Below, in pieces: positions 1,329 through 22,895 of a DNA stretch of 64,000 bases; position 1 is the first letter of the stretch; each line of letters begins with the position of its first letter. Position numbers and translations under genes: made by a program. The notes beneath the pieces are model-generated. The model was not told where the DNA came from. It did no database searches and saw only the letters and a list, made by a program, of their open reading frames with translations. The stretch is taken from positions 394,503 to 458,502 of the forward strand of contig OZ220716.1 of assembly GCA_965116795.1 (NCBI GenBank), in the 5' to 3' direction. The DNA comes from Gammaproteobacteria bacterium (GTDB lineage: Bacteria; Pseudomonadota; Gammaproteobacteria; JAJFKG01).

Positions 1329-1404
1329 GCTGGCGTAGCTCAGTTGGTAGAGCAGCTGATTTGTAATCAGCCGGTCGTAGGTTCGAATCCTATCGCCAGC
1401 TCCA
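1329..1404 (+). tRNA. tRNA-Thr(TGT), integration site of the island
   Basis: 76-nt cloverleaf; anticodon arm GCTGA-TTTGTAA-TCAGC; GTTCGAATC T-loop; encoded CCA. Confidence 0.97.
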
Positions 1405-1407
1405 GCA
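1356..1407 (+). repeat. attL core (52 bp)
   Basis: CTGATTTGTAATCAGCCGGTCGTAGGTTCGAATCCTATCGCCAGCTCCAGCA, identical to 13349-13400. Confidence 0.95.
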
Positions 1408-1408
1408 G

Positions 1409-1468
1409 AATCAATTAGTTAGGTTTCATTCTAATTATCAAGTTTTTTCGGTGCTACGCGGGTGCTAC
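1409..1468 (+). promoter_or_regulatory. Putative IHF site and integrase arm-type sites (left end)
   Basis: AATCAATTAGTTA fits WATCAAnnnnTTR (1409-1421); GGTGCTAC at 1450 and 1461 (11-bp period), same motif at the right end. Confidence 0.65.
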
Positions 1469-1709
1469 AGATTTTACTTAGTGCCTTCTCTACATTTGCA
1501 AAATTGTATATTAGAGAGAAGATAGTATGTCAAAGTAATTGTAGTATTAATCAATTGAGGCGCCACTCAAATGCTGGTACAGTTGCGAGGCACACACGGT
1601 ACGCATGCACCGAAACAATACTTATATACACTTAACTAATGTAAATCTGGGTAACTAGGCAAAAAACTCTTATTCTCTTATTGAAGAACCTGTTGGCCAC
1701 TTACTCTAA

Positions 1710-2747
1710 TTGCTTATAAGAGAGCGAGTTATGTTCGATGTTGATTTAGTTAGAGAATTCAAAAAAGCTCTAGGGAAAGAAAAAATTGCTGTTTTAAATT
1801 TAGACTATATATCGAATGAAATTGAAAATTGGTGGAGTAGTTTCAATCAAGATAAGTATAATTTGCGATTAGCGAAGTTTCCGTTGGCAAATTTAATTAT
1901 CAGCAAAATTAGACCTGAGCATGCTATTTATTTGAATACAGTCGGATTAAATAATGTTGCAGGTGTAACAATCAATAATTTATTTAAAACTGACTCAGAA
2001 AAACTTGCTTATGTTGTGCATGAAACTATGTCTGAACTATTTGGATTAAGTGATATTAAATATCCTTATGAAGAACACAAAAAAATTTATTTAAAAGCAG
2101 ATGGAATAAATTACCAAGATTGGGGGAATGGCTTCGGCAAGATCAGTCCGCATTCAGATGATTTGTATGAAGAATTGGATACAGAATTACTATCACTAAC
2201 GGTTTGTCGAGATAAAACTAATACTAGTACAAGTCTATATCTTTACAAAGATATATTTTCTGAGTTTTCCGACCTAGAAATTAGTCAACTTTTTAATATC
2301 ACTGCAAAATTTATTTCTGGAAAAAATGTATCTGCATATAAGTATAGAGAGAGGAAAGTTATAGAATATCAGAAAAAAATTGGGTTTAACATTTTTTTTG
2401 ATTTTAGAGTTGATACAGAGATTGGCTGTAGAATGCTCCCAACTTGTTCTATAGGTTTGCAACTTTTGAAAAAAGCGAAAGAAACTATTCATAATTGTCA
2501 TAATCAAGAAACTCTTTCACAAACTGGAACATTTACTATAATCTCTAATCTCAAAGCATTACATGCTAGAGAAGAAATGCATATTAACAAAAAGATAGCT
2601 TTAGAAATAGCAAATATTAACAATTATGCTATTTCTCCTAGGCTGTTATTTCGAAGTAAAGGGCAGAGTACTATATTGAGATCGCAAAATCCAAATAAAA
2701 AATCATATGGAGACAAAGAGACATATAAGGAGGTCGAATTATTATGA
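1710..2747 (+). CDS. Fe(II)/2-oxoglutarate-dependent oxygenase, TauD/clavaminate synthase-like (probable start ATG 1731)
   Basis: HxD motif ISPHSDD; distal SNLKALHAR (cf. DNxxxxHxR) and RLLFR motifs. Confidence 0.7.
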   Translation: MLIRERVMFDVDLVREFKKALGKEKIAVLNLDYISNEIENWWSSFNQDKYNLRLAKFPLANLIISKIRPEHAIYLNTVGLNNVAGVTINNLFKTDSEKLAYVVHETMSELFGLSDIKYPYEEHKKIYLKADGINYQDWGNGFGKISPHSDDLYEELDTELLSLTVCRDKTNTSTSLYLYKDIFSEFSDLEISQLFNITAKFISGKNVSAYKYRERKVIEYQKKIGFNIFFDFRVDTEIGCRMLPTCSIGLQLLKKAKETIHNCHNQETLSQTGTFTIISNLKALHAREEMHINKKIALEIANINNYAISPRLLFRSKGQSTILRSQNPNKKSYGDKETYKEVELL

Positions 2748-4024
2748 AGAATCTAGTTATTATATTTGGGTACAATAATACTAGAATATACGACATCGTG
2801 CGACTCAAAATGTTATGTAAAACTACATTTTCAGCAGAAATAATGTTATGTAAAAATGATATCAATGAACATGACAAAAAAATTACTCCGTATACACTAG
2901 AAATCGATTTGACTATGAATGATATTGAATCAATTCGTAGGCAAATTCAGATAATAGATGACTATATCTACTTTCATAAAGTAATTGTAATTGGTTGTTT
3001 GCCTTTTTCAGATAAAGGCATACCTCTAGGCAGTTATTATGCTAGACATAAAGGATTGAGACATGATGATTGTGAAAGATCAATTGCTTGTATTGATAAG
3101 TATGCATTTCGCTGTATTGAAAAGGAAGTATCTACACCTAAATGGTATAAAAAGCCATTTTTTAAAAAAATTCACTCCGTTGGAGAGGCAAAACAATGTA
3201 TACAAGACACCAATTTTCCGCTATTTTTTAAGCCAATTGCTGAAGGTAACAGTCGAGGCTGTATAGAAATATCTTCTTTGCACATATTAGAAGAAAATCT
3301 AGATATTATTACCCCTTATCTAGAGCAGGGAATTCTTGTTGAGGAATGTATTAAGAATCATAATGAATACAGTTTTGATGGCATTAATGGAAGTTACATT
3401 ATTACAGAGAAAAAAACATCCGATGGTTATTTTCGTGTTGAAACACAACATATTTTACCTGCACCGTTACCACATCATTTATACCAAAGACTCATCACTG
3501 CAGGAAAAATTATATCCAGCATGATTGGATCAAATGGCGGAGCTGTTCATCACGAAATGTTTTTAAATCCAATAACCGGTAGCGTATATTGTGTGGAGCC
3601 TAATCGTAGACCGGCTGGCTTAAAGCTTTGGGATTGGATCCACATAGCAAATTCCAATAGAGACAATAACTGGATAGCTTGGTTAAATTGGGCAATTAAA
3701 AAAACTGACAATTTAAAGGCTGAAAAATATAATTACTATGTTGGATGTAGAATGTTAACTTCTCGACAAACTGGAGCTGTTCATTCAATTAATGCAAAAC
3801 TTAAATCTAAAATTCAACAGATTAATAACTTGTGCGATCTTCAGTTAACTAAGAGTATAGGAGAAATTGTTACAGATACCCCAAAAGAAAATGGCGATTT
3901 TATTGGTTACTTTGTTTGCAAGGATCTCTCCTATGATGGTCTAATTGAAAAACTAAATGAAATTGAAAAACTATCAGAAAAAATTTATATAATAGCTGCT
4001 GTAGATCATTATGCGGACATTTAA
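2744..4024 (+). CDS. ATP-grasp amide ligase, L-amino-acid ligase-like
   Basis: DKYAFR, FFKPIAEGNSRG, LVEECI, EYSFDG, ITEK, HHEMFL, VEPNRRPAG; ATGA overlap with the upstream gene. Confidence 0.85.
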   Translation: MKNLVIIFGYNNTRIYDIVRLKMLCKTTFSAEIMLCKNDINEHDKKITPYTLEIDLTMNDIESIRRQIQIIDDYIYFHKVIVIGCLPFSDKGIPLGSYYARHKGLRHDDCERSIACIDKYAFRCIEKEVSTPKWYKKPFFKKIHSVGEAKQCIQDTNFPLFFKPIAEGNSRGCIEISSLHILEENLDIITPYLEQGILVEECIKNHNEYSFDGINGSYIITEKKTSDGYFRVETQHILPAPLPHHLYQRLITAGKIISSMIGSNGGAVHHEMFLNPITGSVYCVEPNRRPAGLKLWDWIHIANSNRDNNWIAWLNWAIKKTDNLKAEKYNYYVGCRMLTSRQTGAVHSINAKLKSKIQQINNLCDLQLTKSIGEIVTDTPKENGDFIGYFVCKDLSYDGLIEKLNEIEKLSEKIYIIAAVDHYADI

Positions 4025-5066
4025 CAAAATTGACATATATTTCTCCAGGCTTGTTTCTGCGTTATGCTTATTCTGGGTACTAGCTGAAGCAAATGTGTGG
4101 TTGGATGCTACAAATAATATCATTTTAGTATTAGGGTATAGATTATTTATTTTATTAACGCCATGCTTTTTTTTAGTTTTTCGACACAAATTAACGTTCG
4201 CCGCATTTTTTATATTAGAAGTTGGCATTGGATTGTGGGTATTTAACTTTACCTTTCTGGGAACTATTTTTTTTGCGATTGGCATATCAATAAGCGGTTA
4301 TATGCTCAAATATTACAGCTGTTTTTCAATAAAAGGTGTTACTGGAAATAAAATTGCACTAAATTTGGGTAGTATTTTATCTGGTTGTTTCATTATTCTT
4401 TCACAAAATAAATTAATCACTTTGATAGCTTGCTTTTTCATGATTCTATTTGCCAGTATTGCTTTCTTTAAGTATTTTAAACGTGAAAATATATCAAATT
4501 TTAAATCATGTAATCACTTTAAATTTAATATTGTTTTCAGCAAACAAGGGATTGCTTGGTCGATAATTGGTTTTGTAATAGGAGTAAAACTAATTGCATT
4601 AGTATCTATATTGCCTCAATTCCTGTTACAAGGAAATGATGGGAAATTACCTTGGTGGTTTGGTGGCATGATTATATTAAATAGTTTAATTGTCGTAGTT
4701 TTACAAATACCAATCATGAAGAAAGTCAGTAAATTTAATCAATGGCAGGCATTAATACCACTATTTGTCGGTATGTTTATCATTTTATTATCTCCTACGC
4801 TATATATTACAACATTTATTGGATCACTTATCTGGACTATTACTCTTTCTATTGTGGAATGTTGCATTAGTTATCTTGACAAACTCGCTCAAGATAAAAA
4901 TTGTTTATTAATCAAAGAAGCATTTGTAGGTTTAGGAAGTGCATCTACAGTATACTTTGTCAGATTTTTTCCACCACAGTTAGGTTCATTTTATATCGGG
5001 TTTATCTCGATATTGGCATTATTAGTCAGTTTAAGTATCCTACATATTTTAGAAACTAATCCATAA
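4011..5066 (+). CDS. Polytopic membrane protein, divergent MFS-like exporter
   Basis: About 10-11 hydrophobic segments; NLGxILSG and NSLIVVVLQIP motifs typical of cluster-associated MFS proteins; overlaps the ATP-grasp gene. Confidence 0.65.
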   Translation: MRTFNKIDIYFSRLVSALCLFWVLAEANVWLDATNNIILVLGYRLFILLTPCFFLVFRHKLTFAAFFILEVGIGLWVFNFTFLGTIFFAIGISISGYMLKYYSCFSIKGVTGNKIALNLGSILSGCFIILSQNKLITLIACFFMILFASIAFFKYFKRENISNFKSCNHFKFNIVFSKQGIAWSIIGFVIGVKLIALVSILPQFLLQGNDGKLPWWFGGMIILNSLIVVVLQIPIMKKVSKFNQWQALIPLFVGMFIILLSPTLYITTFIGSLIWTITLSIVECCISYLDKLAQDKNCLLIKEAFVGLGSASTVYFVRFFPPQLGSFYIGFISILALLVSLSILHILETNP

Positions 5067-5241
5067 ATTTAATTACAATTGTGTTAGTTGATAAACACAA
5101 TTAGAGCCGTTTATCAGCAAATAACTCACATTCGCAAAGTACAAAATGCAGGATAAGGTAGCCTTTTCATAAGATAAGCTATACCACGAGTTTATGTCGG
5201 CAAATAAACGTGTTTCAGCGATTCCCAGATTTACACTATCA

Positions 5242-5499
5242 TTAATCAAAAAAATTTCGAATCAACGCAGCTTGTTTTGCCAGCTCTTTGTTCAGTTGTC
5301 TTAATTCCTTACGAGTCTTTTCCCAGCCACCCCTTTTATCAGCATTGCGAGATGCTTTTTGCTTTCCTTCATCAGTTTTAGGACCGGTCGACTTATCCCA
5401 AGGTTTCCATTGGCGAATCGCCATTGACTGCTTACGCCTTCGTTCCTCACTCCAACTGTTACACACGATCAGCCACCCCCAATAGTTCGTTTTTACCAA
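5242..5499 (-). CDS. Small basic protein with STGPKTxEGK motif (HGGxSTG-domain-like)
   Basis: WKPWDKSTGPKTDEGKQKASRNA, a motif common in integrated elements. Confidence 0.65.
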   Translation of the reverse strand: MVKTNYWGWLIVCNSWSEERRRKQSMAIRQWKPWDKSTGPKTDEGKQKASRNADKRGGWEKTRKELRQLNKELAKQAALIRNFFD

Positions 5500-5975
5500 A
5501 TTTTATTTTTTTCATCAGGAGAATTTGCATTGTTTACTTGCTGGTGTCCCTGAGCAATATTAGCCTGTTTAGCAAAGACAACCGGTGGCTTCTGAACTGT
5601 CGCCAATGTTTGTAATGTACTACGACACTGATTTTGTGCCTTGAATGCTAACCTTAACCACGTTTCTTTTCTTGCTAGATTTTCTGCTATAGCAGCCCTA
5701 CGAGATAAATTCACAAAAATTGACTGCAACGCGTGGGCTTGGCTTAATAACATAGCCTCACACGAATCCATGCAACCATTGTTAAATTTATCAAGCATAT
5801 GAGAAAGGCCATTTGCTAATTCGGCTACACTCAACTCTCCAAAGCTTTCCCCATAGTCAGCTATGACCGCTGCCGCATTAATACTAGGAAGTATTGCTAA
5901 CAGCTCTGCATGTTCCTTCTTAGAAACGTCGTTTTCTTGTTCATCAGGTAAGTGTTTTTTCTCAACTTCTTTCAT
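5493..5975 (-). CDS. Conserved hypothetical protein of integrative elements
   Basis: SD AGGAGAG upstream; helical EAMLxxQAxALQ...AFKAQNQCRSTL...QANIAQGHQQVNN pattern. Confidence 0.7.
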   Translation of the reverse strand: MKEVEKKHLPDEQENDVSKKEHAELLAILPSINAAAVIADYGESFGELSVAELANGLSHMLDKFNNGCMDSCEAMLLSQAHALQSIFVNLSRRAAIAENLARKETWLRLAFKAQNQCRSTLQTLATVQKPPVVFAKQANIAQGHQQVNNANSPDEKNKIW

Positions 5976-6011
5976 ATTAAAAATCTCTCCTCAAAAAATA
6001 AATTAATCAAA

Positions 6012-6080
6012 TGCAAGTCGTGAATGTCGTGCAAGTCGTGTTAGAGGATATCAAGAACGACATTCACGACTTGCACGACA
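6012..6080. repeat. Putative replication origin (iterons) of the element
   Basis: GTCGTG x3 at 9-bp period, then inverted (C)ACGAC x3; perfect 19-bp inverted repeat 6012-6030/6057-6075; directly downstream of the primase-helicase. Confidence 0.7.
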
Positions 6081-6091
6081 TGAAATCAACT

Positions 6092-8164
6092 TCATTCTCT
6101 TCTCTCAACCAGCCAATTTACATGGCTGCCAATTTTTCCAATACTGCGACATTCAATGCCAATTTGTCTCAGTGCTGGTGCAGCACGACGTAGTGCATCG
6201 GCAAAGCCTTTAGCAGAGCGTGGCCAAGCATCTGTGTTATGGGGGCGATGCTTTTCGATATCACTAAATAATTCCTTAACTGGCATCTGCTTTTTTAGCG
6301 TAAATTGTTTTTCAAACCAGTCAATTAATGCCGTAGCTACTGGGCTAGCATCCAGTGTCCGTGCAATAGACTCTTGACGAGCATTATTAAACTGCGATAG
6401 AAATTCATCCTCAGATAATCCTGTTACTCTAGCTATTGCCATACCCAAGTAGACAAACTCAATCAAACGTGGGTGAGTGGCTACAGGCAAAGATATATCA
6501 GAAATTTTTGCTAAAGCAGAAGAAAAAATCGTTAACAATCCACCTAATATGCTACTGTGCTGCTCAGTATAGTCACACCAAAGCTTGGTAGTTTCCATTC
6601 TTGCATTAATAATTGGCATTTCAACAGAAACCGTGCGATCGATAAGATCTTGTGCCGTAATAGATACACTAATACCATTCAAAACAATCGGACGTTTTAC
6701 ATCAATAATTGTTTCATCTGCATCACTATATAGCTTTCTTTTTGCAAAACCACCCCCAGTCGACAATATACATAATGCATCTTGCATTGATGGTGATAAG
6801 TGGCTTATGTTTTCATAGCTAGCTAACCAATTGACACCTGCACTAACAAAAATGTCTTCAACTGCTTTCGGCGCAGCACGTAATTCACATGTGTTTGGAT
6901 CAATTAATTGTCTTAACATACGCTGTGTGGTGCTTTTAGCACTGCCTTGTTCACCAATCAACTCTAAAATTGGAAAAGGGGTATCAATACGTAGACATTC
7001 TGCCAGCCAAGCCATAACCAGCAATCTTACAGATTCAGGGATATTAACTAGTCGCCACAATAAATTTATATCGCCACTTTGTTGTGGTTCAGGTAATGCC
7101 CGTAAATTCTCTGGCCTTAAAAATCTAATAGGTGGATTAGAAATAATTCTCCAACCAGATGCATTAATTTCAACAACACGACTTTTACCTGATTCGCCAA
7201 GATCAAGGTAATAATTACTATCGTGCTGGCCAACACGGATAAATACTTCGTGACACTCACCTGTAAACCTTGCTAAACCTGATAAAGTGGCCAACGCCTC
7301 ACGCATAGCTTGATCACGTGGTGATTTTTTTGTCTCTTCATAAAATTTAGCCACCAACCAATCACGAAACTGTCGGCTATCAAGCCTACGTGTTTCATTG
7401 GTTTCTTTATCTTGAGCATAAACATCTTTATTAACATCATGAAACAAGACGACTCTATTTTTTACAAAAGAAACCAATTGTGAAGACTGATTTTGTTTTT
7501 CTTTTCCATTATCATCACCCTTAACTGTTTCTTGATTAGAAACTTTAATTTGTGGTAGCTGAAAAATATTAGCTTTAGCTGCATTTGGATTAAGCTTTAA
7601 CCAATCGATGACATCAGATTTTTCTGGTAAATCTAGCTTAGCAACATCAATGATACTAATAGTACAATTTAACAATTTTAAGAAATTAATAACGGACTTA
7701 GCGTAACTCTGCCCACTGGTATCATTATCTGGCCAGACAATAATACTCCTTCCCGCTAATACTGACCAATCAACTTTATCAGCCGAACTTGTTGCACCAC
7801 TCGTCGTTGCTGGTATGTCAAGCTTGACTAAGGCATCAACACAAAATTCACCTTCACAAATAAATATAGGCGCTTCTTGTGCTTGGTCTATCTGCACAAG
7901 ATTATAAAGCGGTTTTAAACCAGCAAATTTTGGTTCACTTAGTTTGTAATTCTCACCATCAAAATACATTGGCCTGATCCATTTTTCATTGGTTCGATGA
8001 TTTTTCAGGCGAATGCGCCAATACATTACGTTACCATTTTTGTCTGTATATTCATGTAATGCCTCAAATTCATAATTTTTATAGCTTTGTTTCAATACTT
8101 TTTTTGCAAATTGTATCGCAGCTTGTTTAGGTTCTAGCTTTGTATTTATCATGATGCCTCCCAT
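6092..8164 (-). CDS. Primase-helicase (Toprim domain + P-loop ATPase); probable start ATG 8152
   Basis: Toprim ICEGE...WPDND..G...DVIDW; Walker A GEQGSAKS; ENIS and GGGFAKRKLYSD helicase motifs. Confidence 0.85.
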   Translation of the reverse strand: MGGIMINTKLEPKQAAIQFAKKVLKQSYKNYEFEALHEYTDKNGNVMYWRIRLKNHRTNEKWIRPMYFDGENYKLSEPKFAGLKPLYNLVQIDQAQEAPIFICEGEFCVDALVKLDIPATTSGATSSADKVDWSVLAGRSIIVWPDNDTSGQSYAKSVINFLKLLNCTISIIDVAKLDLPEKSDVIDWLKLNPNAAKANIFQLPQIKVSNQETVKGDDNGKEKQNQSSQLVSFVKNRVVLFHDVNKDVYAQDKETNETRRLDSRQFRDWLVAKFYEETKKSPRDQAMREALATLSGLARFTGECHEVFIRVGQHDSNYYLDLGESGKSRVVEINASGWRIISNPPIRFLRPENLRALPEPQQSGDINLLWRLVNIPESVRLLVMAWLAECLRIDTPFPILELIGEQGSAKSTTQRMLRQLIDPNTCELRAAPKAVEDIFVSAGVNWLASYENISHLSPSMQDALCILSTGGGFAKRKLYSDADETIIDVKRPIVLNGISVSITAQDLIDRTVSVEMPIINARMETTKLWCDYTEQHSSILGGLLTIFSSALAKISDISLPVATHPRLIEFVYLGMAIARVTGLSEDEFLSQFNNARQESIARTLDASPVATALIDWFEKQFTLKKQMPVKELFSDIEKHRPHNTDAWPRSAKGFADALRRAAPALRQIGIECRSIGKIGSHVNWLVERRE

Positions 8165-8460
8165 GAACCTAATGCTTTAGCTACATCAACAAAATGCATT
8201 TTGTAGCGCTGCATATGAAATGCTAAAACATCACCGCCACGTGCACCACAAGCCATACAGCGAAAGCCGCCAGAATCTAGTCTTATTCTTAAACTAGGTC
8301 GAGTATCGTTGTGAAATGGGCAAATTGCAGATTTCCATTCACCCCCGCCAATGAGTTTTAAGCCTTGAGCGTGGTAATACGTACCTGGATCTGGCAATTT
8401 GTTACGGTTAAAGCTATTGTGCATAATAACCTCCCCGTAAAACTTGATCTCCAAAGCCAA
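8149..8460 (-). CDS. CHC2 zinc-finger protein (primase Zn-binding domain as a separate ORF)
   Basis: CPFHND..PSL...GGFRCMACGARGGDV; ATGA coupling to the primase. Confidence 0.85.
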   Translation of the reverse strand: MALEIKFYGEVIMHNSFNRNKLPDPGTYYHAQGLKLIGGGEWKSAICPFHNDTRPSLRIRLDSGGFRCMACGARGGDVLAFHMQRYKMHFVDVAKALGSWEAS

Positions 8461-8538
8461 TATATAGCTTAAAAGCGTAAAATTCTTGTGGGTTTATTTG
8501 TGTTTTGATAAGATTAGCTGTCTTATGAATATTAAATG

Positions 8539-8573
8539 CGATCCGAGGTATGCAGCCTCGGATCGGCCTTTTT
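8539..8573 (+). terminator. GC-rich hairpin with T-tract (terminator or regulatory stem)
   Basis: CGATCCGAGG-TATGCAG-CCTCGGATCG followed by GCCTTTTT. Confidence 0.45.
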
Positions 8574-8583
8574 GATTTCATCA

Positions 8584-8850
8584 TTACTTTTTCTCCTTTT
8601 CATATTGGCCAGGATGGAGAACATAATTAGCAACACGATGGTAACCACCACTCCCTGGATTTCTACTCTTAGACCAATGTGTTTTGATGTTATAGCCGTG
8701 CTGATGTCTTAGCTCACAGATACGGCTGCCAACTTCTAAAACATCTAATTGATGTCTAGCTTCAATCGTGGTAATTGGCTTTTTTTGTAGCCATGTCAAC
8801 AATCTTTTTCGCTGCGACTTCGCAGAACAGTCAAATTTTACTTTTCGCAT
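8584..8850 (-). CDS. Small winged-HTH DNA-binding protein
   Basis: QRKRLLTWL..ITTIEAR..LDV...SRICELR..GYNI..VANYVL, a phage-type HTH. Confidence 0.75.
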   Translation of the reverse strand: MRKVKFDCSAKSQRKRLLTWLQKKPITTIEARHQLDVLEVGSRICELRHQHGYNIKTHWSKSRNPGSGGYHRVANYVLHPGQYEKEKK

Positions 8851-9101
8851 TGATCTTTCTCTCCTGTATGGGTTCTCATTCTGTTTTTGAGAAACTGTCT
8901 AAGATCTCCTAAGCGATATCGAATTTTCCGCCCAATCTTGCAATACAGAAGGCCGTACCTGCCGGTTGTCCTCCAGATCTGCAAAGCATGTTCAGATAAG
9001 CACAGAAATTCAGCAGCCTTTGATTGATCCAGTAATGCTGAATCAGGTAATGCATCAAAATTGGGGCTACTCTCCAATTTTGCTTCTGTTTGTTTTGGCA
9101 T
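8838..9101 (-). CDS. AlpA/excisionase-like HTH protein
   Basis: LLDQSKAAEFLCLSEHALQIWRTTG...KIGRKIRYRLGDLRQFL; SD AGGAGG. Confidence 0.85.
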   Translation of the reverse strand: MPKQTEAKLESSPNFDALPDSALLDQSKAAEFLCLSEHALQIWRTTGRYGLLYCKIGRKIRYRLGDLRQFLKNRMRTHTGEKDQCEK

Positions 9102-9305
9102 AATTTTGCCTCCTAAAAAATAGATATTGAAAACTACCTTAATACTTCAAGGTGAAGCACTAAGCACCGGAGAATAGAATGGGTAATGGTTTAAATATTA
9201 CAAGCTGATATATTTTGGGAAATATTCGTAAAACTTGGAGCTATTTCAGAAAAAATAAACTATTAAAATCAATTGGTTATAAAAAATTTGACACGAGAGC
9301 TTGTC

Positions 9306-9374
9306 CTGAAACATTACAAATCCATACTAGTTCAGTATGGCAGTCTGAAATATTACAAATCGGCCCTAGTTCAG
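9306..9374 (+). repeat. Two 30-bp imperfect direct repeats (operator-like)
   Basis: CTGAAA(C/T)ATTACAAATC-N4-CTAGTTCAG at 9306-9335 and 9345-9374, 25/30 identical. Confidence 0.6.
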
Positions 9375-11908
9375 ACGCTGGCGATTGTTTCCCTCATTCC
9401 CGTTTTTGATAGGCGATTTTTTAACTGAGCGATTATCTTTTGTTTTGTAGCGGAATCTGCCTTTGCGCTATTTTCAATAGAAGAGATAAGATTACTAATG
9501 CTAAGCTCCGAATTAATTGTTCTCATAGCAGGGAATTGTTTCCCGCCTCTTTTGGTATGGCTTCCCTCTTTCAATAAAATAAAAACTTTATGTGAAAGAT
9601 AGTCTTTATACTTGTCAGATTCGTCATCAGCGTGTAATTTTCGTAAGTCATATTCTTTGTTTTCTGATATTGCTAAATTGTAATCTTCGATCAAAATATC
9701 GGCTGCAAATTGCCGAGCAGTTAGCTTCCAATCTCTACTTGTATCATTCCTTGACAAAGAAACTTGCTCTCTTCCGTCAGATTTTTTTGTATTCGAAAGA
9801 TTATCGACTAAACCAAAACATTCCCAAAAATCTTCTTTTTCAGGAGTAGCAATACCTTGTTTGTCAAGAACAAATGCTACTTCATGCCAATGTAATACGA
9901 GATCTGTGTTAAAAACATCATGATCATAATATTCAACAATTTCTCTTGTATTTTTATCATGCAATTTTAATTCACCTCTATATAAACTATCCCATATAGT
10001 CCTTTCTACTGAAAGCATGAACTTATAGACGCATAATTCACTTAACTTAAATTCTTTCTTTTTCGCCCAAAATAAAGCAATATCTTCAGCAACCGTATAT
10101 ATATTACTAAGACCTATCAAAAAAATGTTTTTGTTTTTTTCTATCTTTTCAGGTTTATCATCAACATCAAACCTATTAGGCAATCGATACACATCTTCAG
10201 TTAATTTAACAACCTGGCTATCTGCCACATAAGCATCAAGCCTTCCATTAATTAACTGATGATATTTTTCAATTTGAAAATGGTAAGCAGTGTTATCACT
10301 TTCAACAATTACTCTTACTAAATTCCAGTTTGGCTTATCTTCAAATCTATAAAAAGCTCTTAAAATCTTTTTAAAATCAGCTAAAGAATTGGCAGGATTA
10401 GAGTTAGAGTATTCAGTATAACTATACTTATTTTCAAGTTGATCACGTCTTATTATATGCCCATTCATAAAAGCAGACATAATTATGCGGTTTTTTGTTC
10501 CAGAATCATCTAAATTATTTAAATTTGGATACTCAACGAAATGATTGCAATGAGACTCGATAAAACTTACCAAGCTATCATCTAATTTCTTAATACGACT
10601 ATAGCGTTTTTTAAAAAAGAATGATAAAAAAATATTTTTGAAATCTTTATTTTCTATCTTATCCTTTAAATTTGACAAATTTATACTATTAGGGATTTTT
10701 AATTTGTGTGTGAAACCATGTATATCGTAGAAAAAACAATACCGTTTTTCTTGGGAAAGATAGACTGTGCTTGCTTTTATGAAAAAAATAACTTTTATTT
10801 TAAATTCATGCTCTTTTATCTTATCATCCAAATTTGACAAGTCTATGTATGCTGGTAGTTTTGTTTTTTTAACGCTACCATCAACTGTTCGAAAAAGACA
10901 AGCCTTTTCAATCTCAGATAAATAAATTATGTTCTTTTCTGCATTATTATTCTCCGGTAGTTTTGATATTAGCTTTAGATTATAATCTGTTCTTGCTATA
11001 TCAACAGAAGACAAATCAGACATTAATTTTAAACTGATTTCAAACTGATTCTCATCAGATAAAGCCAAGTCTATTTCTCCATTTTTTTCTACGAAATCGT
11101 CTAGGTCAAGCTCCTTTATTGTACTATCAGCTTGTTTTGCTAGAATTTTAAAATTTGAAGCTTTTCCATCTTTATAAAAATAAATTCCAGATTCTATTAA
11201 TAAATTTTGATCTGGTTTCCCTACATTACACATCATATAATAGTATGCATGTCTACATATAGAAGTATCACCCTCCTGTACATCCCCATTTTCATCTCTT
11301 AACGTATATTTCAAATTTTTAGCATCAACGTAAATTATCCCTTCAATTGCATCTTGCTTAGTTTTTATTTCAGACATTGGAAGCAATGTATAACGATCTC
11401 TATAAGCTTGTGCTATCAGTTCGATATCTTGATCAGTTAAAGGATCGACTTTATGATGTCTGTTATAAGCACGTGGTAGTTCACCAAAAACTTGAATATG
11501 CTTCTCAAAAGGCTCGGAAATCTTAATAGGAAAATCTATTTTTTTAGCAAGACATTCTTCTTTAGCAATAAATTCATATATTTCAATCCTGCCAACAATA
11601 TTATTAATTTTTTCTGTTAAATCTTTAAATCTTTCCTCATTGGGAAAAGATCCTGTATATTCCTTACCATACCTTTTTTTCAAGGTATATTTTCGATTCT
11701 CTATATCAATAAAAATTGTCCCCACTGGAAAATCTCTAAGGTCATGATCAAAAGGAAAAAAACCATAACCAAGTGTCAAATGTTGATTATAACGGTTATA
11801 TTTATTTACTTCGTTTTGTATCTTTCTAATAGCGAAATATGGTCGATTCGGAACTTCTTTCATCGCAAGATACTGACATATTTGTTCTTTAGTAAACAGC
11901 TTTGGCAT
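9371..11908 (-). CDS. Large hypothetical protein with internal repeats
   Basis: 845-aa uninterrupted ORF in AT-rich DNA; repeated IY(L/V)...(Y/F)...G units. Confidence 0.75.
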   Translation of the reverse strand: MPKLFTKEQICQYLAMKEVPNRPYFAIRKIQNEVNKYNRYNQHLTLGYGFFPFDHDLRDFPVGTIFIDIENRKYTLKKRYGKEYTGSFPNEERFKDLTEKINNIVGRIEIYEFIAKEECLAKKIDFPIKISEPFEKHIQVFGELPRAYNRHHKVDPLTDQDIELIAQAYRDRYTLLPMSEIKTKQDAIEGIIYVDAKNLKYTLRDENGDVQEGDTSICRHAYYYMMCNVGKPDQNLLIESGIYFYKDGKASNFKILAKQADSTIKELDLDDFVEKNGEIDLALSDENQFEISLKLMSDLSSVDIARTDYNLKLISKLPENNNAEKNIIYLSEIEKACLFRTVDGSVKKTKLPAYIDLSNLDDKIKEHEFKIKVIFFIKASTVYLSQEKRYCFFYDIHGFTHKLKIPNSINLSNLKDKIENKDFKNIFLSFFFKKRYSRIKKLDDSLVSFIESHCNHFVEYPNLNNLDDSGTKNRIIMSAFMNGHIIRRDQLENKYSYTEYSNSNPANSLADFKKILRAFYRFEDKPNWNLVRVIVESDNTAYHFQIEKYHQLINGRLDAYVADSQVVKLTEDVYRLPNRFDVDDKPEKIEKNKNIFLIGLSNIYTVAEDIALFWAKKKEFKLSELCVYKFMLSVERTIWDSLYRGELKLHDKNTREIVEYYDHDVFNTDLVLHWHEVAFVLDKQGIATPEKEDFWECFGLVDNLSNTKKSDGREQVSLSRNDTSRDWKLTARQFAADILIEDYNLAISENKEYDLRKLHADDESDKYKDYLSHKVFILLKEGSHTKRGGKQFPAMRTINSELSISNLISSIENSAKADSATKQKIIAQLKNRLSKTGMRETIASV

Positions 11909-11987
11909 ATCTAACCTTATTTGTACCCGCCATAATCAATACAGGATTAATTTCAAAAAACTTATCCTAGTTTAGCAACACCATAAA

Positions 11988-13189
11988 TTAAGCAACCTCT
12001 TCTGTTTCTGTTACTTTCTCTAAAACAAAATCCGTTATCTTCTGCATAGGTTCTCTTAACCTATCCACATTTGCAACAATATAACCCGCCGTTACATCAT
12101 TACCATCAGCATGATTTAATAATCTTTTTAAAGCATAAGCTGGAATATCTAATGACTCTGCAACGGTCGCAAAGGTTCTTCTTAAATCATGTATACAAAA
12201 CTCAATTCCTGTTGCTTCTTTAAGTTTGGCCATAGCATAACGAAAATTATAAATAACCTGCCCTCTTTTATTTGCAAATACAAAATCTGAAACACTGATT
12301 GCTTTACGATGTTTGAATACATCAAAAATAAAATCTGACATGGGTAAAGTATGATCACGATGGTTTTTAGGTTCTCGAATCACAAAAGTTTTTTCCTCAA
12401 AATCGACATCTGACCAACGTAGTTTTAAAGCTTCCTCTTTCCTTAAACCAGTTAGCAACACAACCATAAAATAATCCCGAATATCTGTGTTTGCTAACAA
12501 TTGAACGGCCTTGACCCAAGAACCTAGCTCATAAGCCTTAATAACTGTTTGCCGTCTGGCAATACGAAACCAAGCTTTAGTTTGAGAAAGTTTGTAAACT
12601 GGGTTAACTTCTATGAACGGTTTACCTGTTTGATCTTGATATTCAGCAGCAGCAAAGTTAAACAAAGCCCGTAAATAACGCATCGCTAGATTAGCACCCG
12701 CCTTACTTCTGCTTTCTCCGTGCGTCTTGTGGCGTTAGTAACCATATCAGAGGTAATTTTATTTAAAGGCAAATCAAACCAGTCAGGGCAGACCATTTTC
12801 AGCGTTTTCAGCATATCTTGCTTAGTTCTAGGTTTTAGTTGTTTTCGTGTAATTAAATAGTCTTCTAAAACATCTGTTAGCGTCTTCATATCCAATTTCT
12901 GCCGCTTACGCTCACTAATTGGATTTACCCCTTGGGCAATTTGTCCTAAGACTCTGGCAGCTTGTTTTCTGGCTTGCTCAATGGTTAATTCTGGAAACCG
13001 CCCTAGCGTGATCCGTTGAGGAGAACCCTCTACCCTCTTTTGTACGAAAAAGGTCTTAGCCGTTCCTGTTACGCGAAGTTGTAACCCCACAGATTGTTTA
13101 TTCGTATCGTGGTATATCTGGCGCTGTCTTTGTTCAGCAAAAGGCAATGCTTCAATTGCAGGTTTTGTAAAACCGAAAGAATTTGTCAT
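11988..13189 (-). pseudogene. int: Tyrosine integrase with Arm-DNA-binding domain, split by a 1-nt frameshift near 12735
   Basis: N-part (12686-13189) GLQLRVT..KTFFV..RITLGRFPELTIEQARKQA; C-part (11988-12683) LTGLRKEE, HDLRRTFAT, LLNH, TAGY; adding one A gives continuous MVTKRHKTHGESRSKAGANLAMRYLRALFNFA. Confidence 0.85.
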
Positions 13190-13212
13190 CTAATTGCATA
13201 CTCTAAAACGCT

Positions 13213-13268
13213 GGTGCTACACTGGTGCTACGCTTTCAGTCAAAATAGATACAGCTTGGTGTAGCACC
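13213..13268. promoter_or_regulatory. Integrase arm-type sites (right end)
   Basis: GGTGCTAC at 13213 and 13224, inverted GTAGCACC at 13261. Confidence 0.65.
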
Positions 13269-13348
13269 ATACAGGACAGTGTAAAGATAACGTATTGTTA
13301 TGTAAAGATTTGTATAGGAAAGTAGATCAGGGTATGGCGTATCTATTT

Positions 13349-13400
13349 CTGATTTGTAATCAGCCGGTCGTAGGTTCGAATCCTATCGCCAGCTCCAGCA
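13349..13400 (+). repeat. attR core (duplicated 3' part of tRNA-Thr)
   Basis: Identical to 1356-1407; lacks the tRNA 5' acceptor strand and D-arm. Confidence 0.95.
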
Positions 13401-13412
13401 AAATCGAATACT

Positions 13413-14708
13413 TCATTCCAATCTATCAAATGCTTCAATAGGTTGTTTAGACAACGGTATCCAAAACAAACTAATGCCTGCCATCAACAAAAAGATACCT
13501 GCTACTAGCATTGGCATATCGGCACCAACGCTCGCCATAATACCTACCATTAATGCAGACAAACCAAAACACAATGCACCGATAGAGCCCGTTACTCCCA
13601 TTACCCATCCTTGCTCATCTGCAGTCACTTGACCAGAAAATATAGCCAAGTGGGTTGCATAACCAACCGCTATTGCGCATGCGATCACAAAACCACAATA
13701 CCATACCCATATGGCCTGATATAGAAAGTAAGTAGCAACCACAGCCATGCTGGCAATCAGATAACACACGCCAACGATATTACATTTTGGATAACGTTGG
13801 CTTAAGCGATCAACTAATAAGCCACAACCAACACTAAACCCAACCCCCAGTAAAGCGAGGAACAGTGACACATACAATGATGAATAGCCAAAGCGATGTA
13901 ATAAAAACATCGCAATAAATGAAAAATAGCCACCCCATCCAACATTCATTAATAAAAATGTTACCGATAAATAACGAATATTAGGATGTTTGAATGCGGA
14001 TACAAAAATGTTAATCGCATGGTGCCATTTAATTTGCAAGCGTGCTTTAGTAGAACGTGTTTCAGTAAATGCACACCATAACCATATCACATTGACTAAT
14101 GCCATAATTGCAGCAAAGAATAATGGTGTCGTATACCCGAACCACGATACCCAACTGCTTTCAGATAACACACCACCTAACGTTGGGCCTAACACAAAAC
14201 CAAGCGCAAGGGCTAAAATAATAAAACCTAGATTACGTGTCTTATGCTCTTCTGGACTAATATCCACAATCGCCGCTTGCGCAATCGGTTGACTGCCAGC
14301 AGTAAATCCTGCCACCATGCGTCCAATAATTAACAAACTAATACTATTGATAACAATTGAGATCGCACAAATCAAATAACCCAAGCATGCACCGATTAGG
14401 CAAATTAATAATGTCCGCTTACGACCGATGCTATCGGATAGATCCCCTAAAATTGCCGCACCAAAAAACCAACATAACATAAATATACTGACAACAATGC
14501 CATACAAAATTTCGCGCCAGGCGACTGAGGTATCCGCGGCTAAAAAACTAGAACTCGGATCAATGATGATACTATTCAGAATAGGGAATAATAATCCTAA
14601 CCCCATACCATCAATAAATAACACTAAAAACAATGTAAAAAAAACCATGTTAACCCCTATTTCAGTGATGCCAGCAACCGCATAAGATGCAATTAGATGG
14701 AAATCCAT
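13413..14708 (-). CDS. MFS transporter, TetA/DHA1-like
   Basis: GDLSDSIGRKR motif A, IIGRMVAG, GFVLGPTLGG motif C; 12 TM. Confidence 0.9.
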   Translation of the reverse strand: MDFHLIASYAVAGITEIGVNMVFFTLFLVLFIDGMGLGLLFPILNSIIIDPSSSFLAADTSVAWREILYGIVVSIFMLCWFFGAAILGDLSDSIGRKRTLLICLIGACLGYLICAISIVINSISLLIIGRMVAGFTAGSQPIAQAAIVDISPEEHKTRNLGFIILALALGFVLGPTLGGVLSESSWVSWFGYTTPLFFAAIMALVNVIWLWCAFTETRSTKARLQIKWHHAINIFVSAFKHPNIRYLSVTFLLMNVGWGGYFSFIAMFLLHRFGYSSLYVSLFLALLGVGFSVGCGLLVDRLSQRYPKCNIVGVCYLIASMAVVATYFLYQAIWVWYCGFVIACAIAVGYATHLAIFSGQVTADEQGWVMGVTGSIGALCFGLSALMVGIMASVGADMPMLVAGIFLLMAGISLFWIPLSKQPIEAFDRLE

Positions 14709-14800
14709 CTTAACAGAATTCCCTTATAGCTCAATTAATTAGGTATCTTATTGCTTTATGTCAGTACCATCTCTCTGAACTAACACCTAAGAAATCGCTG

Positions 14801-14829
14801 TTGCAATATAGCCGACAACCCATTAGAAT
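14801..14829 (+). promoter_or_regulatory. Sigma70 promoter for the leader of the Pht-like MFS gene
   Basis: TTGCAA, 17 bp spacer, TAGAAT. Confidence 0.55.
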
Positions 14830-14854
14830 GGCTCTAATTATTTTTGTGGAAATC

Positions 14855-14968
14855 ATGAAAATGACCGTTAATAATCAACAATTATATTTACAACGTAATT
14901 TGGCACCCACTGGTAGTACACCTTCGTCTACTCCTGCCTTGGTCATTCACATTATCAACCTATCTTAG
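14855..14968 (+). CDS. Putative 37-aa leader peptide
   Basis: GTGGA SD then ATG; MKMTVNNQQLYLQRNLAPTGSTPSSTPALVIHIINLS; stop lies within a hairpin. Confidence 0.3.
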   Translation: MKMTVNNQQLYLQRNLAPTGSTPSSTPALVIHIINLS

Positions 14969-15030
14969 TGTTTTTGCTGCACTAGGGTAGGTAACTGTAT
15001 CAGCAAGCTTAACCACTTTAAACTGAAACA

Positions 15031-16342: not shown

Positions 16343-16672
16343 TTAAATTATCAATTGCATTAACAAAATATACGTCAGTGTACCAGCAATAATGCTTAAC
16401 ATAATATTACGTCGCCAACAATGCACACCTGTCACTACAATTAATGCGATTATTGCTGGGATCCCATAAGGAAAATGGTTAAATTCAGCGATATTGATTT
16501 CAAAAATAACCAGTAAGACCATAATGTATGCTGGTAAAGAGCGCCCTAATGTGCGAATAGTAGTACTGTTTTTGATGAGTCTGCTGATCATAAATGGCAA
16601 CACACGTGTTACGATGATCAATAACGACAGCATCAATGTCATCAATAACACATATATTGTATCATGCTGCAT
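16343..16672 (-). CDS. azlD: AzlD-family branched-chain amino acid exporter, small subunit
   Basis: TRVLPF...LGRSLP...HCWRRNIMLSIIAGT; paired with azlC. Confidence 0.85.
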   Translation of the reverse strand: MQHDTIYVLLMTLMLSLLIIVTRVLPFMISRLIKNSTTIRTLGRSLPAYIMVLLVIFEINIAEFNHFPYGIPAIIALIVVTGVHCWRRNIMLSIIAGTLTYILLMQLII

Positions 16673-17351
16673 TGCGACGTTTCTCCCAGGTCACTTGTAT
16701 CAATAAAATCAGTGCAACTGAAATAATGATTGCCAACAATAAAAAATTCTTAGGCATAATTAAAAAAGCAACCAATGCTGCAAACAACGGCGCAATTAAA
16801 CTGATAATGCGACGATTTGCCAAGTAATGTTCTATAACTAACACCATAAAGAAAGCCGGTAAAATAAACTCTAAGCCATTAATTTTGGGTAATAAGTCAG
16901 CACAAAGTGCACCGATAAATGTACCACTTACCCATGCTAAATACATAAATAGTGATAAATAAAAACAAAATTGGATATCACATTCGCCTTCTTTAGGTGG
17001 ATTAGCAACAACGGTAATATATGCCGCATCAACTAGCATAAAAATCAACAAAAATTGACGCAGCCAGTGAGTTTTGTAACGTTGTAATAAGCTCAAACCA
17101 TAAAATGAATTGCGTAATGCGAGAAACAATGTTGCCAAGAATACTGCCAATATACTGCTATGCAGTGTTGTCATCATACTTAATGCAACAAATTGCACTG
17201 AGCCTGCGTAAGTGACCAGGCTCATTATCGGTGCTAGCCACCAACGATACCCTGCATCTGCAAAGAATAATCCAAACGCTATCCCTAATGGGAAATAGGC
17301 CATCATTGTCGGTACTGCTAATTTAAATCCTCGCTGTATTTCAGGCTGCAT
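16662..17351 (-). CDS. azlC: AzlC-family branched-chain amino acid exporter
   Basis: YFPLGIAFG, YAGSVQF, WVSGTFIG, GLEFILPAFF. Confidence 0.9.
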   Translation of the reverse strand: MQPEIQRGFKLAVPTMMAYFPLGIAFGLFFADAGYRWWLAPIMSLVTYAGSVQFVALSMMTTLHSSILAVFLATLFLALRNSFYGLSLLQRYKTHWLRQFLLIFMLVDAAYITVVANPPKEGECDIQFCFYLSLFMYLAWVSGTFIGALCADLLPKINGLEFILPAFFMVLVIEHYLANRRIISLIAPLFAALVAFLIMPKNFLLLAIIISVALILLIQVTWEKRRNAA

Positions 17352-20143: not shown

Positions 20144-20147
20144 ATAC

Positions 20148-20295
20148 AGGCACTATTAAGGAAAACGCCATCTTTGGCGGATCTTGCCAAAAAGCGTAGA
20201 CAAAAAGTGCTCATGTATGCCAAATACACTACGCTTTTTTGTCTACGCTTTTTGACAACCCCCACTCAAAGCTGACGTTTTTCGGTAATATAAAG
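20148..20295. repeat. Palindromic intergenic repeat, family B
   Basis: Inner inverted repeat AAAAAGCGTAGACAAAAA/TTTTTGTCTACGCTTTTT; outer arms match 55236-55358 in reverse orientation. Confidence 0.7.
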
Positions 20296-20321
20296 TCGAC
20301 CGAATAGTTACAATAAATTAA

Positions 20322-21524: not shown

Positions 21525-22895
21525 TTGATCATGAGTAGTAGCACGAAAAAACTCTATATTAAAACCCACGGTTGTCAGATGAATGAATACGATTCTGCAC
21601 GCATGGCAGATGTATTAAATGATACTCAACACTATCAACGCACTGATAATATTAATGAAGCAGATGTATTATTATTAAATACCTGCTCCATCCGCGAAAA
21701 AGCCCAAGAAAAAGTGTTTTCAGAATTGGGACGTTGGCGTCACTTAAAACAAAAAAAACCTGATATGTTAATTGGCGTCGGTGGTTGTGTTGCCAGTCAA
21801 GAAGGTGATGCCATCGTAAAACGGGCTCCCTTTGTTGATGTGGTATTTGGTCCGCAAACATTACATCGATTACCTGAATTACTCGATGATGCAAAACAAT
21901 CAGGCAAACCACACATTGATATTAGTTTTCCAGAAATTGAAAAATTCGATAAGTTGCCTGAGCCTCGTGCTGACGGGCCACGTGCTTATGTATCAATTAT
22001 GGAAGGCTGTAGTAAATATTGTTCCTTTTGTGTTGTACCCTACACCCGCGGTGAAGAAATCAGTCGACCATTTGATGATGTACTGGCGGAAGTGGCTAGC
22101 TTAGCTGAACAAGGTGTACGCGAAATCATTTTACTCGGTCAAAATGTTAATGATTATCGCAGTTACTTACCCGGAGATAATCACAACGATACACCAACAG
22201 CCGATCTTGCTTTATTAATTCATTATATTGCGAGTATCGAATCCATTGGCCGCATTCGTTTTACAACGTCACACCCATTGGCATTTTCAGACACCTTAAT
22301 TAATGCCTATGCAACCGAACCCAAGTTGGCTAATCAGCTACATTTACCGGTACAAAGTGGTTCAGATCGAATTTTATCGCTAATGAAACGTGGTTACACC
22401 GTTGCTGATTTCAAAGCTAAAATTGCCAAGCTGCGTCAAGTACGTCCAGACATTAGTATTTCATCTGACTTTATCATTGGTTTTCCCAGTGAAACAGAAC
22501 AAGATTTTATGGATACCATGACATTAGTCGATGACATTGGCTTTGATAATTCTTACAGTTTTATTTACAGCCCACGTCCTGGCACACCTGCTGCTGCATT
22601 GGCTGACAGACTCAGCGTAGAAGATAAGAAACAACGTTTGAATCAATTACAACACCGGTTGTCATTTCAAGCGGCTCGCATTAGCCGCGCCATGGTTGGC
22701 ACAGAACAAGTTGTGCTCGTCGACAGTATCTCGCGAAAACATCAACACCAATTAAGTGGACGTACTGAAAACAACCGTGTTGTTAATTTTGCTGCAGATG
22801 GGCAACAGCAGCTAATTGGTAAATTTGTTAACATTCACATCACTGAAGCCCTGCCTAATTCACTTCGTGGTGAATTCATTACAGTTGTCTCTTAG
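21525..22895 (+). CDS. miaB: tRNA-2-methylthio-N6-dimethylallyladenosine synthase
   Basis: [26 protein letters not shown] radical SAM motif, TRAM domain. Confidence 0.97.

Follow-up and report, generated by a model that had tools for sequence, protein, structure and literature searches.

The 64,000-nucleotide (nt) stretch analysed here, hereafter the window, comes from a gammaproteobacterium of the lineage JAJFKG01 (assembly GCA_965116795.1, contig OZ220716.1, positions 394,503 to 458,502), and three of its genes occupy one end of a 12.0 kb island that has a 52-nt direct repeat of the 3' end of a tRNA-Thr(tgt) gene at either boundary. We call these open reading frames ORF1, ORF2 and ORF3, and together the trio (Table 1); they are predicted to encode an iron- and 2-oxoglutarate-dependent (Fe/2OG) oxygenase, an ATP-grasp ligase and a membrane exporter. 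All three lie on the plus strand and overlap, ORF1 and ORF2 in an ATGA and ORF2 and ORF3 by 14 nt. The ORF list of the window opens ORF1 at TTG 1710; the likely start is ATG 1731, where its homologues begin and which gives the 338 residues of its database entry (P0001). Residue numbers below refer to the 345-residue form from TTG 1710. The guanine-plus-cytosine (GC) content of ORF1, ORF2 and ORF3 is 29.9, 32.1 and 30.0%, against 41.2% for the genome, and merely 0.3, 1.8 and 0.4%, respectively, of the 1131 long ORFs of the genome have a lower one. All three are intact and keep every family-invariant residue. Standard annotation nevertheless misses the trio: ORF1 and ORF3 have no Pfam or NCBIfam match, and ORF2 stays under every cut-off. 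An earlier reading made from the letters of the window (the sequence-only reading) had picked out three overlapping, co-oriented, AT-rich ORFs on the attL side of the island, opposite in strand to its backbone, and this is borne out by the coordinates, overlaps and GC rank and by the minus-strand position of all backbone genes. The motifs it had recognised, HxD...H in ORF1 and a complete ATP-grasp set in ORF2, prove invariant among homologues (58/58 and 92/92 sequences). Two features had escaped it: a frameshift splits the integrase of the island, and 9371-11908 holds a further AT-rich cargo ORF, 845 amino acids long.

ORF1 likewise has no match in PHROGs, and none to Pfam TauD. Its homologues, itself excluded, number 65 (35-59% identity), and the profile search closes at 77 proteins, all with E below 1e-54; as far as sequence can tell, these form a separate oxygenase family with a sharp edge. 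The AlphaFold2 model (predicted local distance difference test, pLDDT, 92.5) has the double-stranded beta-helix fold of the clavaminate-synthase-like enzymes. In structure comparison with VIA it gave Z scores of 22.8 to KDO1, 22.7 to NapI, 22.6 to CAS and 21.9 to AsnO at 11-15% identity, with a root-mean-square deviation (rmsd) of 3.5 over 277 aligned residues of KDO1 (Foldseek TM 0.66), whereas other 2OG families scored 8 or less. The putative iron triad, H148-x-D150...H285, is invariant in those 58 homologues and, together with T174, D231, R233, R241, R311 and R315, in all 75 near-complete oxygenases, a set that includes 26 ligase-linked, four ligase-fused and 39 AzlCD-linked members. In KDO1, Thr204, Arg328 and Arg332 bind 2-oxoglutarate and the substrate carboxylate (PMC6224419). 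T174 aligns with Thr204 in a hidden Markov model (HMM) alignment, and R311 and R315 match Arg328 and Arg332 by motif position rather than by superposed coordinates, which would make them the P18 arginine for 2OG and the P19 arginine for the substrate carboxylate in the scheme of PMC6224419. ORF1 thus shares with KDO1, NapI, CAS, AsnO, VioC, OrfP and CsiD/GlaH a fold (Z 20-23), the iron triad, two C-terminal arginines and a 2OG-binding threonine (PMC6224419). It differs in its low identity to them (10-15%), in having HxD rather than HxE, in its likely lid, S203-G-K-N206, which by sequence lacks the Asp that binds basic side chains (the DxxD sub-pocket, for which an invariant Asp, D231, is nevertheless present), and at P7, for which we take the position preceding the first His. 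There the conserved Leu gives way to Pro in 56 of the 58 homologues, and six AzlCD-linked members of the 75-sequence set keep it. Because of this last departure we treat the family as one of clavaminate-synthase-like fold and do not file it in IPR014503 proper. On the strength of the model, then, ORF1 is a predicted clavaminate-synthase-like Fe/2OG oxygenase. The label "CsiD" on one homologue (P0065) was not accepted; the profile of the oxygenase family matches Escherichia coli GlaH only weakly (probability 16%).

The second enzyme is equally well modelled (pLDDT 94.8). ORF2 scores under the Pfam curated cut-offs (ATP-grasp_4, 18.9 vs 27 bits; LAL_C2, 13.8 vs 29.4 bits), domains that many of its homologues carry, and the first matches of its family profile are the L-amino-acid ligases BL00235 and BacD (E 1e-11 to 3vot). 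Structure comparison leads to the same enzymes, with Z scores of 35.1 to BL00235, 31.9 to RizA and 29.6 to BacD at 14-17% identity. The alignment with BL00235 (rmsd 3.2, 380 aligned) runs over residues 2-419 and takes in a three-domain ATP-grasp fold with an extension of the C terminus of the L-amino-acid-ligase type, while that with Ddl/VanA covers only residues 1-321 (Z about 19). K119, K163, GNSRG, E200, H269-x-E271 and E285-x-N287-x-R289 are the motifs found invariant in all 92 sequences; the two lysines, the hinge glutamate and the HxE and ExNxR motifs we take to serve ATP and Mg binding. The model accordingly marks ORF2 as a predicted L-amino-acid ligase of a new subfamily, and for both enzymes the folds agree with the oxygenase and L-amino-acid ligase that the sequence-only reading had named. 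Ligase homologues from Bacillus thuringiensis/mycoides, Staphylococcus aureus and Klebsiella aerogenes (P0103, P0104, P0146, P0152, P0158) fall inside the core subfamily; no oxygenase homologue was returned from Bacillus, Staphylococcus or Klebsiella.

ORF3 is more divergent. Its profile matched neither a PDB entry nor the neighbouring major facilitator superfamily (MFS) protein of the host; it has nine strongly hydrophobic segments by hydropathy, its ESM feature score to MFS clusters is 0.96-0.98, and three of its 22 homologues match MFS_1 (best E 9e-10). The MFS-like character proposed from sequence is therefore backed by ESM features and those three homologues and finds no echo in a Pfam match of ORF3 itself; we regard ORF3 as MFS-like, on indirect assignment, and as a probable exporter.

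The trio recurs in other genomes. The oxygenase profile found 56 genome loci, in 21 of which the oxygenase stands with the ligase and an ORF3-type MFS gene (the oxygenase being split or cut in four), while 26 have the oxygenase with AzlC-AzlD and no ligase nearby. In two the ligase is the only one of these partners, one of the loci having a different membrane protein and the other being truncated at the contig end; two more have a ligase-oxygenase fusion, one an AEC transporter and four none of these partners (two of them cut short). The 33 metagenome loci, partly the same contigs, divide into seven trio, three ligase-only, two fusion, 15 AzlCD, one AEC and five without a partner. By an independent count, the longest contig of 28 of 65 oxygenase matches is as long as that of a ligase match. 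The trio spans several bacterial phyla; its carriers include Legionellales, Coxiellaceae, Fangia, Pseudomonas, an alphaproteobacterium, Bdellovibrionota and Marivirga, although short contigs of metagenome-assembled genomes may be mis-binned. The three gene trees are congruent (Mantel rho 0.63, 0.70 and 0.81; n=19 loci, p=0.0005), to which shared descent contributes, and 62 of 70 loci show a higher AT content in the cassette than in the flanking DNA. The spread of the cassette is sporadic: the ligase subfamily occurs in one of 203 genomes of the family to which the Legionella locus belongs and in 1/63 and 4/127 of two other groups (seed genome counted), and among relatives of the present host the ligase is absent from 40 other genomes and the oxygenase from both order-mates. 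A dipeptide epimerase of the enolase superfamily lies inside or beside the operon in eight loci, with the Bacillus subtilis L-Ala-D/L-Glu epimerase as top match (E 2e-71) and Arg24, whose role is treated in 10.1101/2022.05.01.490185, kept in all eight; a PhzF-like isomerase accompanies the operon in seven loci. These accessory genes point to a dipeptide product. The trio is thus a conserved, horizontally moving operon that co-occurs well beyond the window, as the sequence-only reading required of a real pathway.

The partners of each enzyme vary in an instructive way. Putative active-site residues of the oxygenase are the same in ligase-linked and AzlCD-linked members, which suggests a free amino acid as its substrate, one that the cell can export without ligation. 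AzlCD-linked oxygenases form two or three separate groups in the tree, yet a single clade is not rejected (approximately unbiased test, p=0.48); these were quick trees, from which rows under 260 profile columns were dropped, leaving 75 rows from which 32 were chosen. Oxygenase-azlC-azlD cassettes lacking a ligase (most of L009-L035, with L039, L040, L043, L044, L048, L053 and L055) are AT-rich; in soil Pseudomonas they are inserted between betA and tldD-like genes, and in Rodentibacter, Moraxella and Helicobacter they occupy unrelated sites. At a hybrid locus (L052) oxygenase, azlC and azlD are followed by an inverted ligase and MFS gene. The ligase-oxygenase fusion (about 730 amino acids; L036, L037, L081, L083) belongs to Rickettsiella-like genomes, with an unrelated membrane protein of 423-437 amino acids that has no Pfam match, and a PhzF-like gene, on its 3' side.

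The ligase, in turn, keeps other company in Pseudomonas. At E below 1e-124, its subfamily is present in 43 of 401 sampled genomes of that genus; 10 more have a sister clade. Of 30 short loci, 29 place the ligase between an ORF3-type MFS gene and a RidA-like gene; nine core-type loci were read at 11-15 kb, of which one is a trio and eight are without an ORF1 homologue. Those eight hold a cupin, a glutathione S-transferase (GST) and a KamA-like radical S-adenosylmethionine (SAM) enzyme; seven of them also have an aminotransferase of class IV (IlvE-like) and an oxygenase of the TauD family. The resulting cluster (L151:5519-13248, L152-L154, L156, L157, L161, L162) runs MFS, ligase, RidA-like, cupin, GST, KamA-like radical SAM (CHAYCTFC), aminotransferase and TauD oxygenase, and adjoins cyoABCDE; it probably accounts for most of the 43 core-ligase genomes and is common and apparently undescribed. 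Members of the sister clade belong to clusters that combine three ATP-grasp genes with a ferredoxin, a transporter and an oxidase like MboA of mangotoxin synthesis (E 1.5e-18). Such clusters (L118, L119, L120, L158-L160, L101, L102; transporter MFS or EamA) occur in Pseudomonas, on plasmids of Burkholderia and Streptomyces and in further genomes, and are mangotoxin-like without a recognised MboB or MboE. In the plasmids searched there was no oxygenase; the seven ligases found there are distant (22-27% identity) and belong to clusters of other types. From the partner patterns of the Pseudomonas and AzlCD loci we suggest that the ligase-MFS pair is a reusable module and the oxygenase an exchangeable warhead gene.

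Set against known dipeptide pathways, the trio is conspicuously small. No more than three genes separate the att site from the backbone, and the warhead genes of bacilysin (BacABC), of mangotoxin (MboA/B/E) and, on the gene lists that we assume for these two clusters, of dapdiamide (a nonribosomal peptide synthetase) and tabtoxin (a beta-lactam synthetase) are all absent. The ligase-masking-export logic is established for bacilysin (PMC3684760), and BacD/YwfE with BacE, RizA of rhizocticin and BL00235 offer the closest solved folds of ORF2 together with the shared pairing of ligase and MFS exporter; the trio lacks the anticapsin or phosphonate warhead genes of these pathways and has a single oxygenase instead. 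The nearest parallel in plan is the Hil operon of Pantoea and Pseudomonas (HilAB dioxygenases, PF13535 ligase HilD, MFS protein HilE), which has a ligase-less counterpart, the IDO operon with RhtA, and so shows the same two architectures: an Fe/2OG enzyme acts on a free amino acid that is exported directly (IDO) or, as proposed, first masked by an ATP-grasp ligase and then carried out by an MFS protein (Hil), the Hil dipeptide being itself a hypothesis (PMC3684760). As far as the available text of that source describes the operon core, however, HilA (PF13640) and HilB (PF10014) are not clavaminate-synthase-like, and no Pfam family of that core, which also comprises HilR, HilP and the short-chain dehydrogenase HilC, occurs in the trio. 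The mangotoxin genes mboABCDEF likewise combine ATP-grasp ligases, an iron oxidase and a transporter in the making of an antimetabolite dipeptide (PMC13725569, PMC13185094). They differ in using a heme-oxygenase-like diiron oxidase (HDO), two ligases and a deiminase and in oxidising the peptide, a distinction drawn from pathway content rather than from comparison with the MboC and MboD sequences. The Fuz cluster for fuscazine pairs a VioC-like Fe/2OG hydroxylase acting on a free amino acid with ATP-grasp ligases; in its available description it has seven enzymes, a hydrazine cassette and a transfer RNA deacylase, none of which is in the trio (PMC13149037). The trio therefore belongs to none of the Hil, bacilysin, mangotoxin and Fuz clusters, in keeping with the earlier suggestion that it might be undescribed, and apparently represents a conserved minimal pathway, as yet uncharacterised, of new enzyme subfamilies on a known plan. 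No description of the trio, the oxygenase-AzlCD pair or the Pseudomonas radical-SAM cluster was found in a literature coverage that is incomplete and excludes supplements, and the biosynthetic gene cluster tables of PMC13149037 and PMC13185094 could list them.

How the three proteins might work together can be outlined. ORF1 would use Fe(II), O2 and 2-oxoglutarate to hydroxylate, or to desaturate or cyclise, a free L-amino acid, a substrate proposed because about half of the homologues sit with an AzlCD exporter and no ligase and have the same putative active-site residues. ORF2 would then spend ATP to join and thereby mask the product with a carrier amino acid, for which alanine is the usual choice, and ORF3 would export the dipeptide; uptake and cleavage of the peptide in a competitor or host cell would afterwards release the analogue. 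That the trio carries out this chemistry, whatever its role, we consider quite probable; that its product serves as an antimetabolite has in our estimation an even chance. Modification, ligation and export had been proposed from sequence, and the proposal gains from the folds, the co-occurrence, the congruent trees and the accessory epimerases. The substrate is a matter for guesswork: AzlCD and an extra IlvE hint at branched-chain analogues, and the Ala-Glu-type epimerase and invariant arginines hint at acidic ones. A branched-chain or aliphatic substrate is a tentative choice, somewhat short of even, and acidic, basic and other substrates are each unlikely, to the same degree. A glutamine synthetase gene after the oxygenase (L023/L078) and betIBA before it in Pseudomonas were not used as clues to target or substrate, each being confined to one lineage and separated by a gap of 200-380 nt.

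Several observations weigh against this reading. We found no characterised family member; the best solved relatives of ORF1 and ORF2 are only 11-17% identical, and the assignment of ORF3 is indirect. Split oxygenases occur in several copies (L005/L060, L034, L064, L057), and no duplicated target gene that might confer self-resistance recurs beside the trio in the neighbours scanned. Repeated swaps of partner are not demonstrated, as a single origin of the AzlCD form is not rejected, and the order of the steps can differ, since oxidation in mangotoxin acts on the assembled peptide (PMC13725569).

These points feed the alternatives. The same enzymes and product type could serve a signal, a metal chelator, a host-modulating compound or a stress metabolite, and the missing self-resistance gene would fit such a role, as would the AzlCD form, whose product leaves unmasked and may be only mildly toxic, and the many host-associated or predatory carriers (Legionellales, Coxiellaceae, Rickettsiella, Bdellovibrionota); a signalling alternative is also offered for Hil (PMC3684760). 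Sporadic spread and a GC content below the flanks are nevertheless in line with a conflict cassette, the neighbourhood has no conserved receptor, regulator or TonB importer, and we judge a non-antibiotic role unlikely. It is also conceivable that ligation comes first, with ORF2 making an ordinary dipeptide that ORF1 oxidises, as MboA/B do in mangotoxin (PMC13725569, PMC13185094); the sister ligases beside MboA-like oxidases and the four fusion loci speak for it. Yet the AzlCD loci have the same putative active-site residues and no ligase nearby, and AzlCD is an amino-acid transporter family, which leaves this order decidedly unlikely. Editing of cell-wall precursors, in which a Ddl/Van-like ligase and a racemase or epimerase would yield an altered stem-peptide unit, could draw on the fact that ORF2 finds its best NCBIfam matches in D-Ala-D-Ala ligases (33 bits, cut-off 246), and on the accessory Ala-Glu epimerase and PhzF-like genes. 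It is extremely improbable in view of the nearly full-length alignment of ORF2 to L-amino-acid ligases and the partial one to Ddl/VanA, and of the fact that cytoplasmic precursors need no dedicated exporter.

Two further alternatives turn on the island itself, whose features are collected in Table 1. Such small att-bounded islands with an integrase, an AlpA-like helix-turn-helix (HTH) protein and a primase often carry defence genes (PMC10803314, PMC12595487) and can be transduced by phages (PMC12595487), and the sequence-only reading saw in the trio the cargo of a phage satellite and perhaps a chemical anti-phage defence. Neither idea survives well. Among 964 ORFs of the related loci and the window, no homologue of the island backbone was found outside the window, and Pfam scans of 116 + 112 neighbour proteins (most neighbours, with flanks of at most 8 kb and several short contigs) turned up neither a tyrosine integrase nor a primase. 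Most neighbours elsewhere are housekeeping genes, apart from transposase fragments (L003, L005, L057), toxin-antitoxin genes (L008, L054) and a resolvase (L012), and tRNAs lie close by in L029/L080 and L034; the phage-satellite-like setting is seen in this genome only. IMG/VR viral contigs contained no relative of the ligase, oxygenase or primase, phage records no homologue of the ligase or oxygenase, and PADLOC, which had been suggested as a check, gave no real match (best E 0.005 over 43 residues). With the integrase frameshifted as well, a satellite-borne anti-phage defence has a very slim chance of being right. That the cassette works elsewhere but lies silent here as an inactive passenger seems only slightly less remote: the broken integrase would suit it, and in a consensus scan ORF1 had no promoter-like site upstream, a weak result with 18 sites found against 21 expected by chance. 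Against it stand the three intact ORFs with every family-invariant residue present and their coupled overlaps kept. We therefore return to the reading in which the trio makes and exports a masked, oxidised amino acid.

Table 1. Features of the tRNA-Thr island and its boundaries, in window positions.
Feature	Position	Strand	Basis
tRNA-Thr(tgt), integration site	1329..1404	+	tRNA call; same-genus genome comparison
attL-side 52-nt direct repeat	1356..1407	+	Repeat search
ORF1, predicted clavaminate-synthase-like Fe(II)/2-oxoglutarate oxygenase, 338 amino acids	1731..2747	+	AlphaFold2 model, structure matches, conservation
ORF2, predicted ATP-grasp ligase of L-amino-acid-ligase architecture, 426 amino acids	2744..4024	+	Model, structure and profile matches, motifs
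ORF3, divergent MFS-like membrane protein, 351 amino acids, likely exporter	4011..5066	+	ESM features, MFS_1 matches of homologues
Backbone ORF, 85 amino acids, no family match	5242..5499	-	Pfam, NCBIfam, PHROG scans
Backbone ORF, 160 amino acids, no credible family match	5493..5975	-	Pfam, NCBIfam, PHROG scans
Toprim primase fused to P-loop helicase-like domain, 690 amino acids	6092..8164	-	PHROG primases E 2e-14; Pfam Toprim below cut-off
CHC2 zinc-finger protein	8149..8460	-	PF01807 E 2e-12
HTH_39 winged-helix protein	8584..8850	-	PF14090 E 2e-16
HTH_17 (AlpA/excisionase-like) protein	8838..9101	-	PF12728 E 2e-5, 25 bits vs cut-off 27; phrog_66
AT-rich orphan cargo ORF, 845 amino acids	9371..11908	-	GC 30.5%; no credible Pfam, NCBIfam, PADLOC, PHROG match
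Tyrosine integrase, frameshift-split: 13189-12686 (Arm-DNA-bind_3) and 12683-11988 (catalytic domain)	11988..13189	-	Pfam; contig of run X2
attR-side 52-nt direct repeat	13349..13400	+	Repeat search

The two copies of the repeat are identical. The island resembles satellites of the phage-inducible chromosomal island (PICI) and minimalist-island (PICMI) types in size, att boundaries, integrase, AlpA-like HTH protein, primase and lack of capsid genes (PMC10803314). Of the features given for PICMI in the available text of that source, the AlpA family (PF05930/PF12728) is represented through the PF12728 match just under its cut-off and the integrase (PF00589) is present in frameshifted form, whereas in place of a DUF3987/DUF5906 primase and integration at fis we find a Toprim-type primase and tRNA-Thr. 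The helper-phage families PF05065, PF03354 and PF04860 were not found in the host genome (G000, 97.7% complete), three families whose absence leaves a helper still possible. No PHROG match to packaging genes of PICI, capsid-forming PICI (cf-PICI) or P4, which we take to be terS, capsid, psu and sid, was found among the 12 island ORFs, three of which have no assignment. A 12,001-nt contig of sequencing run X2 equals window 1378-13378 without differences or gaps, and the integrase break is thus probably real, with the proviso that X2 may be the source sample; under the same proviso, sequencing error as its cause is not supported. Depth in that run is 698 inside the island against 730 in the flank, no att joint is listed (contigs only), and its contigs give no sign of excision or amplification. 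In a same-genus genome (G001) birA and tRNA-Thr are followed by different cargo, which makes the site an insertion hotspot. The host genome measures 2.45 Mb and its order has three genomes. The island is probably a stranded, satellite-like integrative element, a mere vehicle that brought the cassette into this genome and now looks immobile.

Some further observations concern the island and its surroundings. The 845-residue orphan, the second cargo slot, holds an internal 49-nt repeat (10636/10798). Just right of attR, at 13371-15000, X2 depth rises 3-9 fold over a single-copy host MFS gene, possibly through reads of other origin in the run. A host azlC-azlD pair at 16343-17351, 3 kb right of the island, could also export free oxygenase product. 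Two families of palindromic miniature repeats, at 20147-20320 (about 170 nt) and 22887-23079 (about 190 nt), each have more than 10 dispersed copies in the genome. Six related elements of contig G000:C1 (near 1061000, 1111000, 1169000, 1265000, 2068000 and 2233000) carry a serine-recombinase-like gene, an AAA ATPase, a primase resembling Wolbachia WO RepA matches and a resolvase-like gene, without capsid genes, their families having been read by eye.

Taken more broadly, the partner patterns invite a speculative reading, to which we give rather less than even chances, of a plug-and-play family of non-ribosomal antimetabolite routes in which a ligase-MFS module for masking and export would be combined with varied warhead enzymes. 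These would be either the new oxygenase family or the KamA-like radical-SAM, aminotransferase and TauD set found in about one in ten sampled Pseudomonas genomes; the chemistry of the oxygenase might be undescribed, be it desaturation, cyclisation or a new regioselectivity, and the new amino-acid analogue that it makes might be delivered free through AzlCD or as a Trojan-horse dipeptide. The present evidence adds no new kind of satellite or phage defence. The interest of the trio lies in its chemistry, as it is about the smallest possible pathway to a peptide natural product and, for the C-H functionalisation of amino acids, adds a new Fe/2OG family, together with a new L-amino-acid-ligase subfamily. 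Nature moreover provides the controls, since the oxygenase occurs both with the ligase and in its absence and the ligase-MFS pair also accompanies a different warhead pathway, and all three architectures are present in cultured Pseudomonas strains, where the radical-SAM cluster is a strong natural-product lead of its own.

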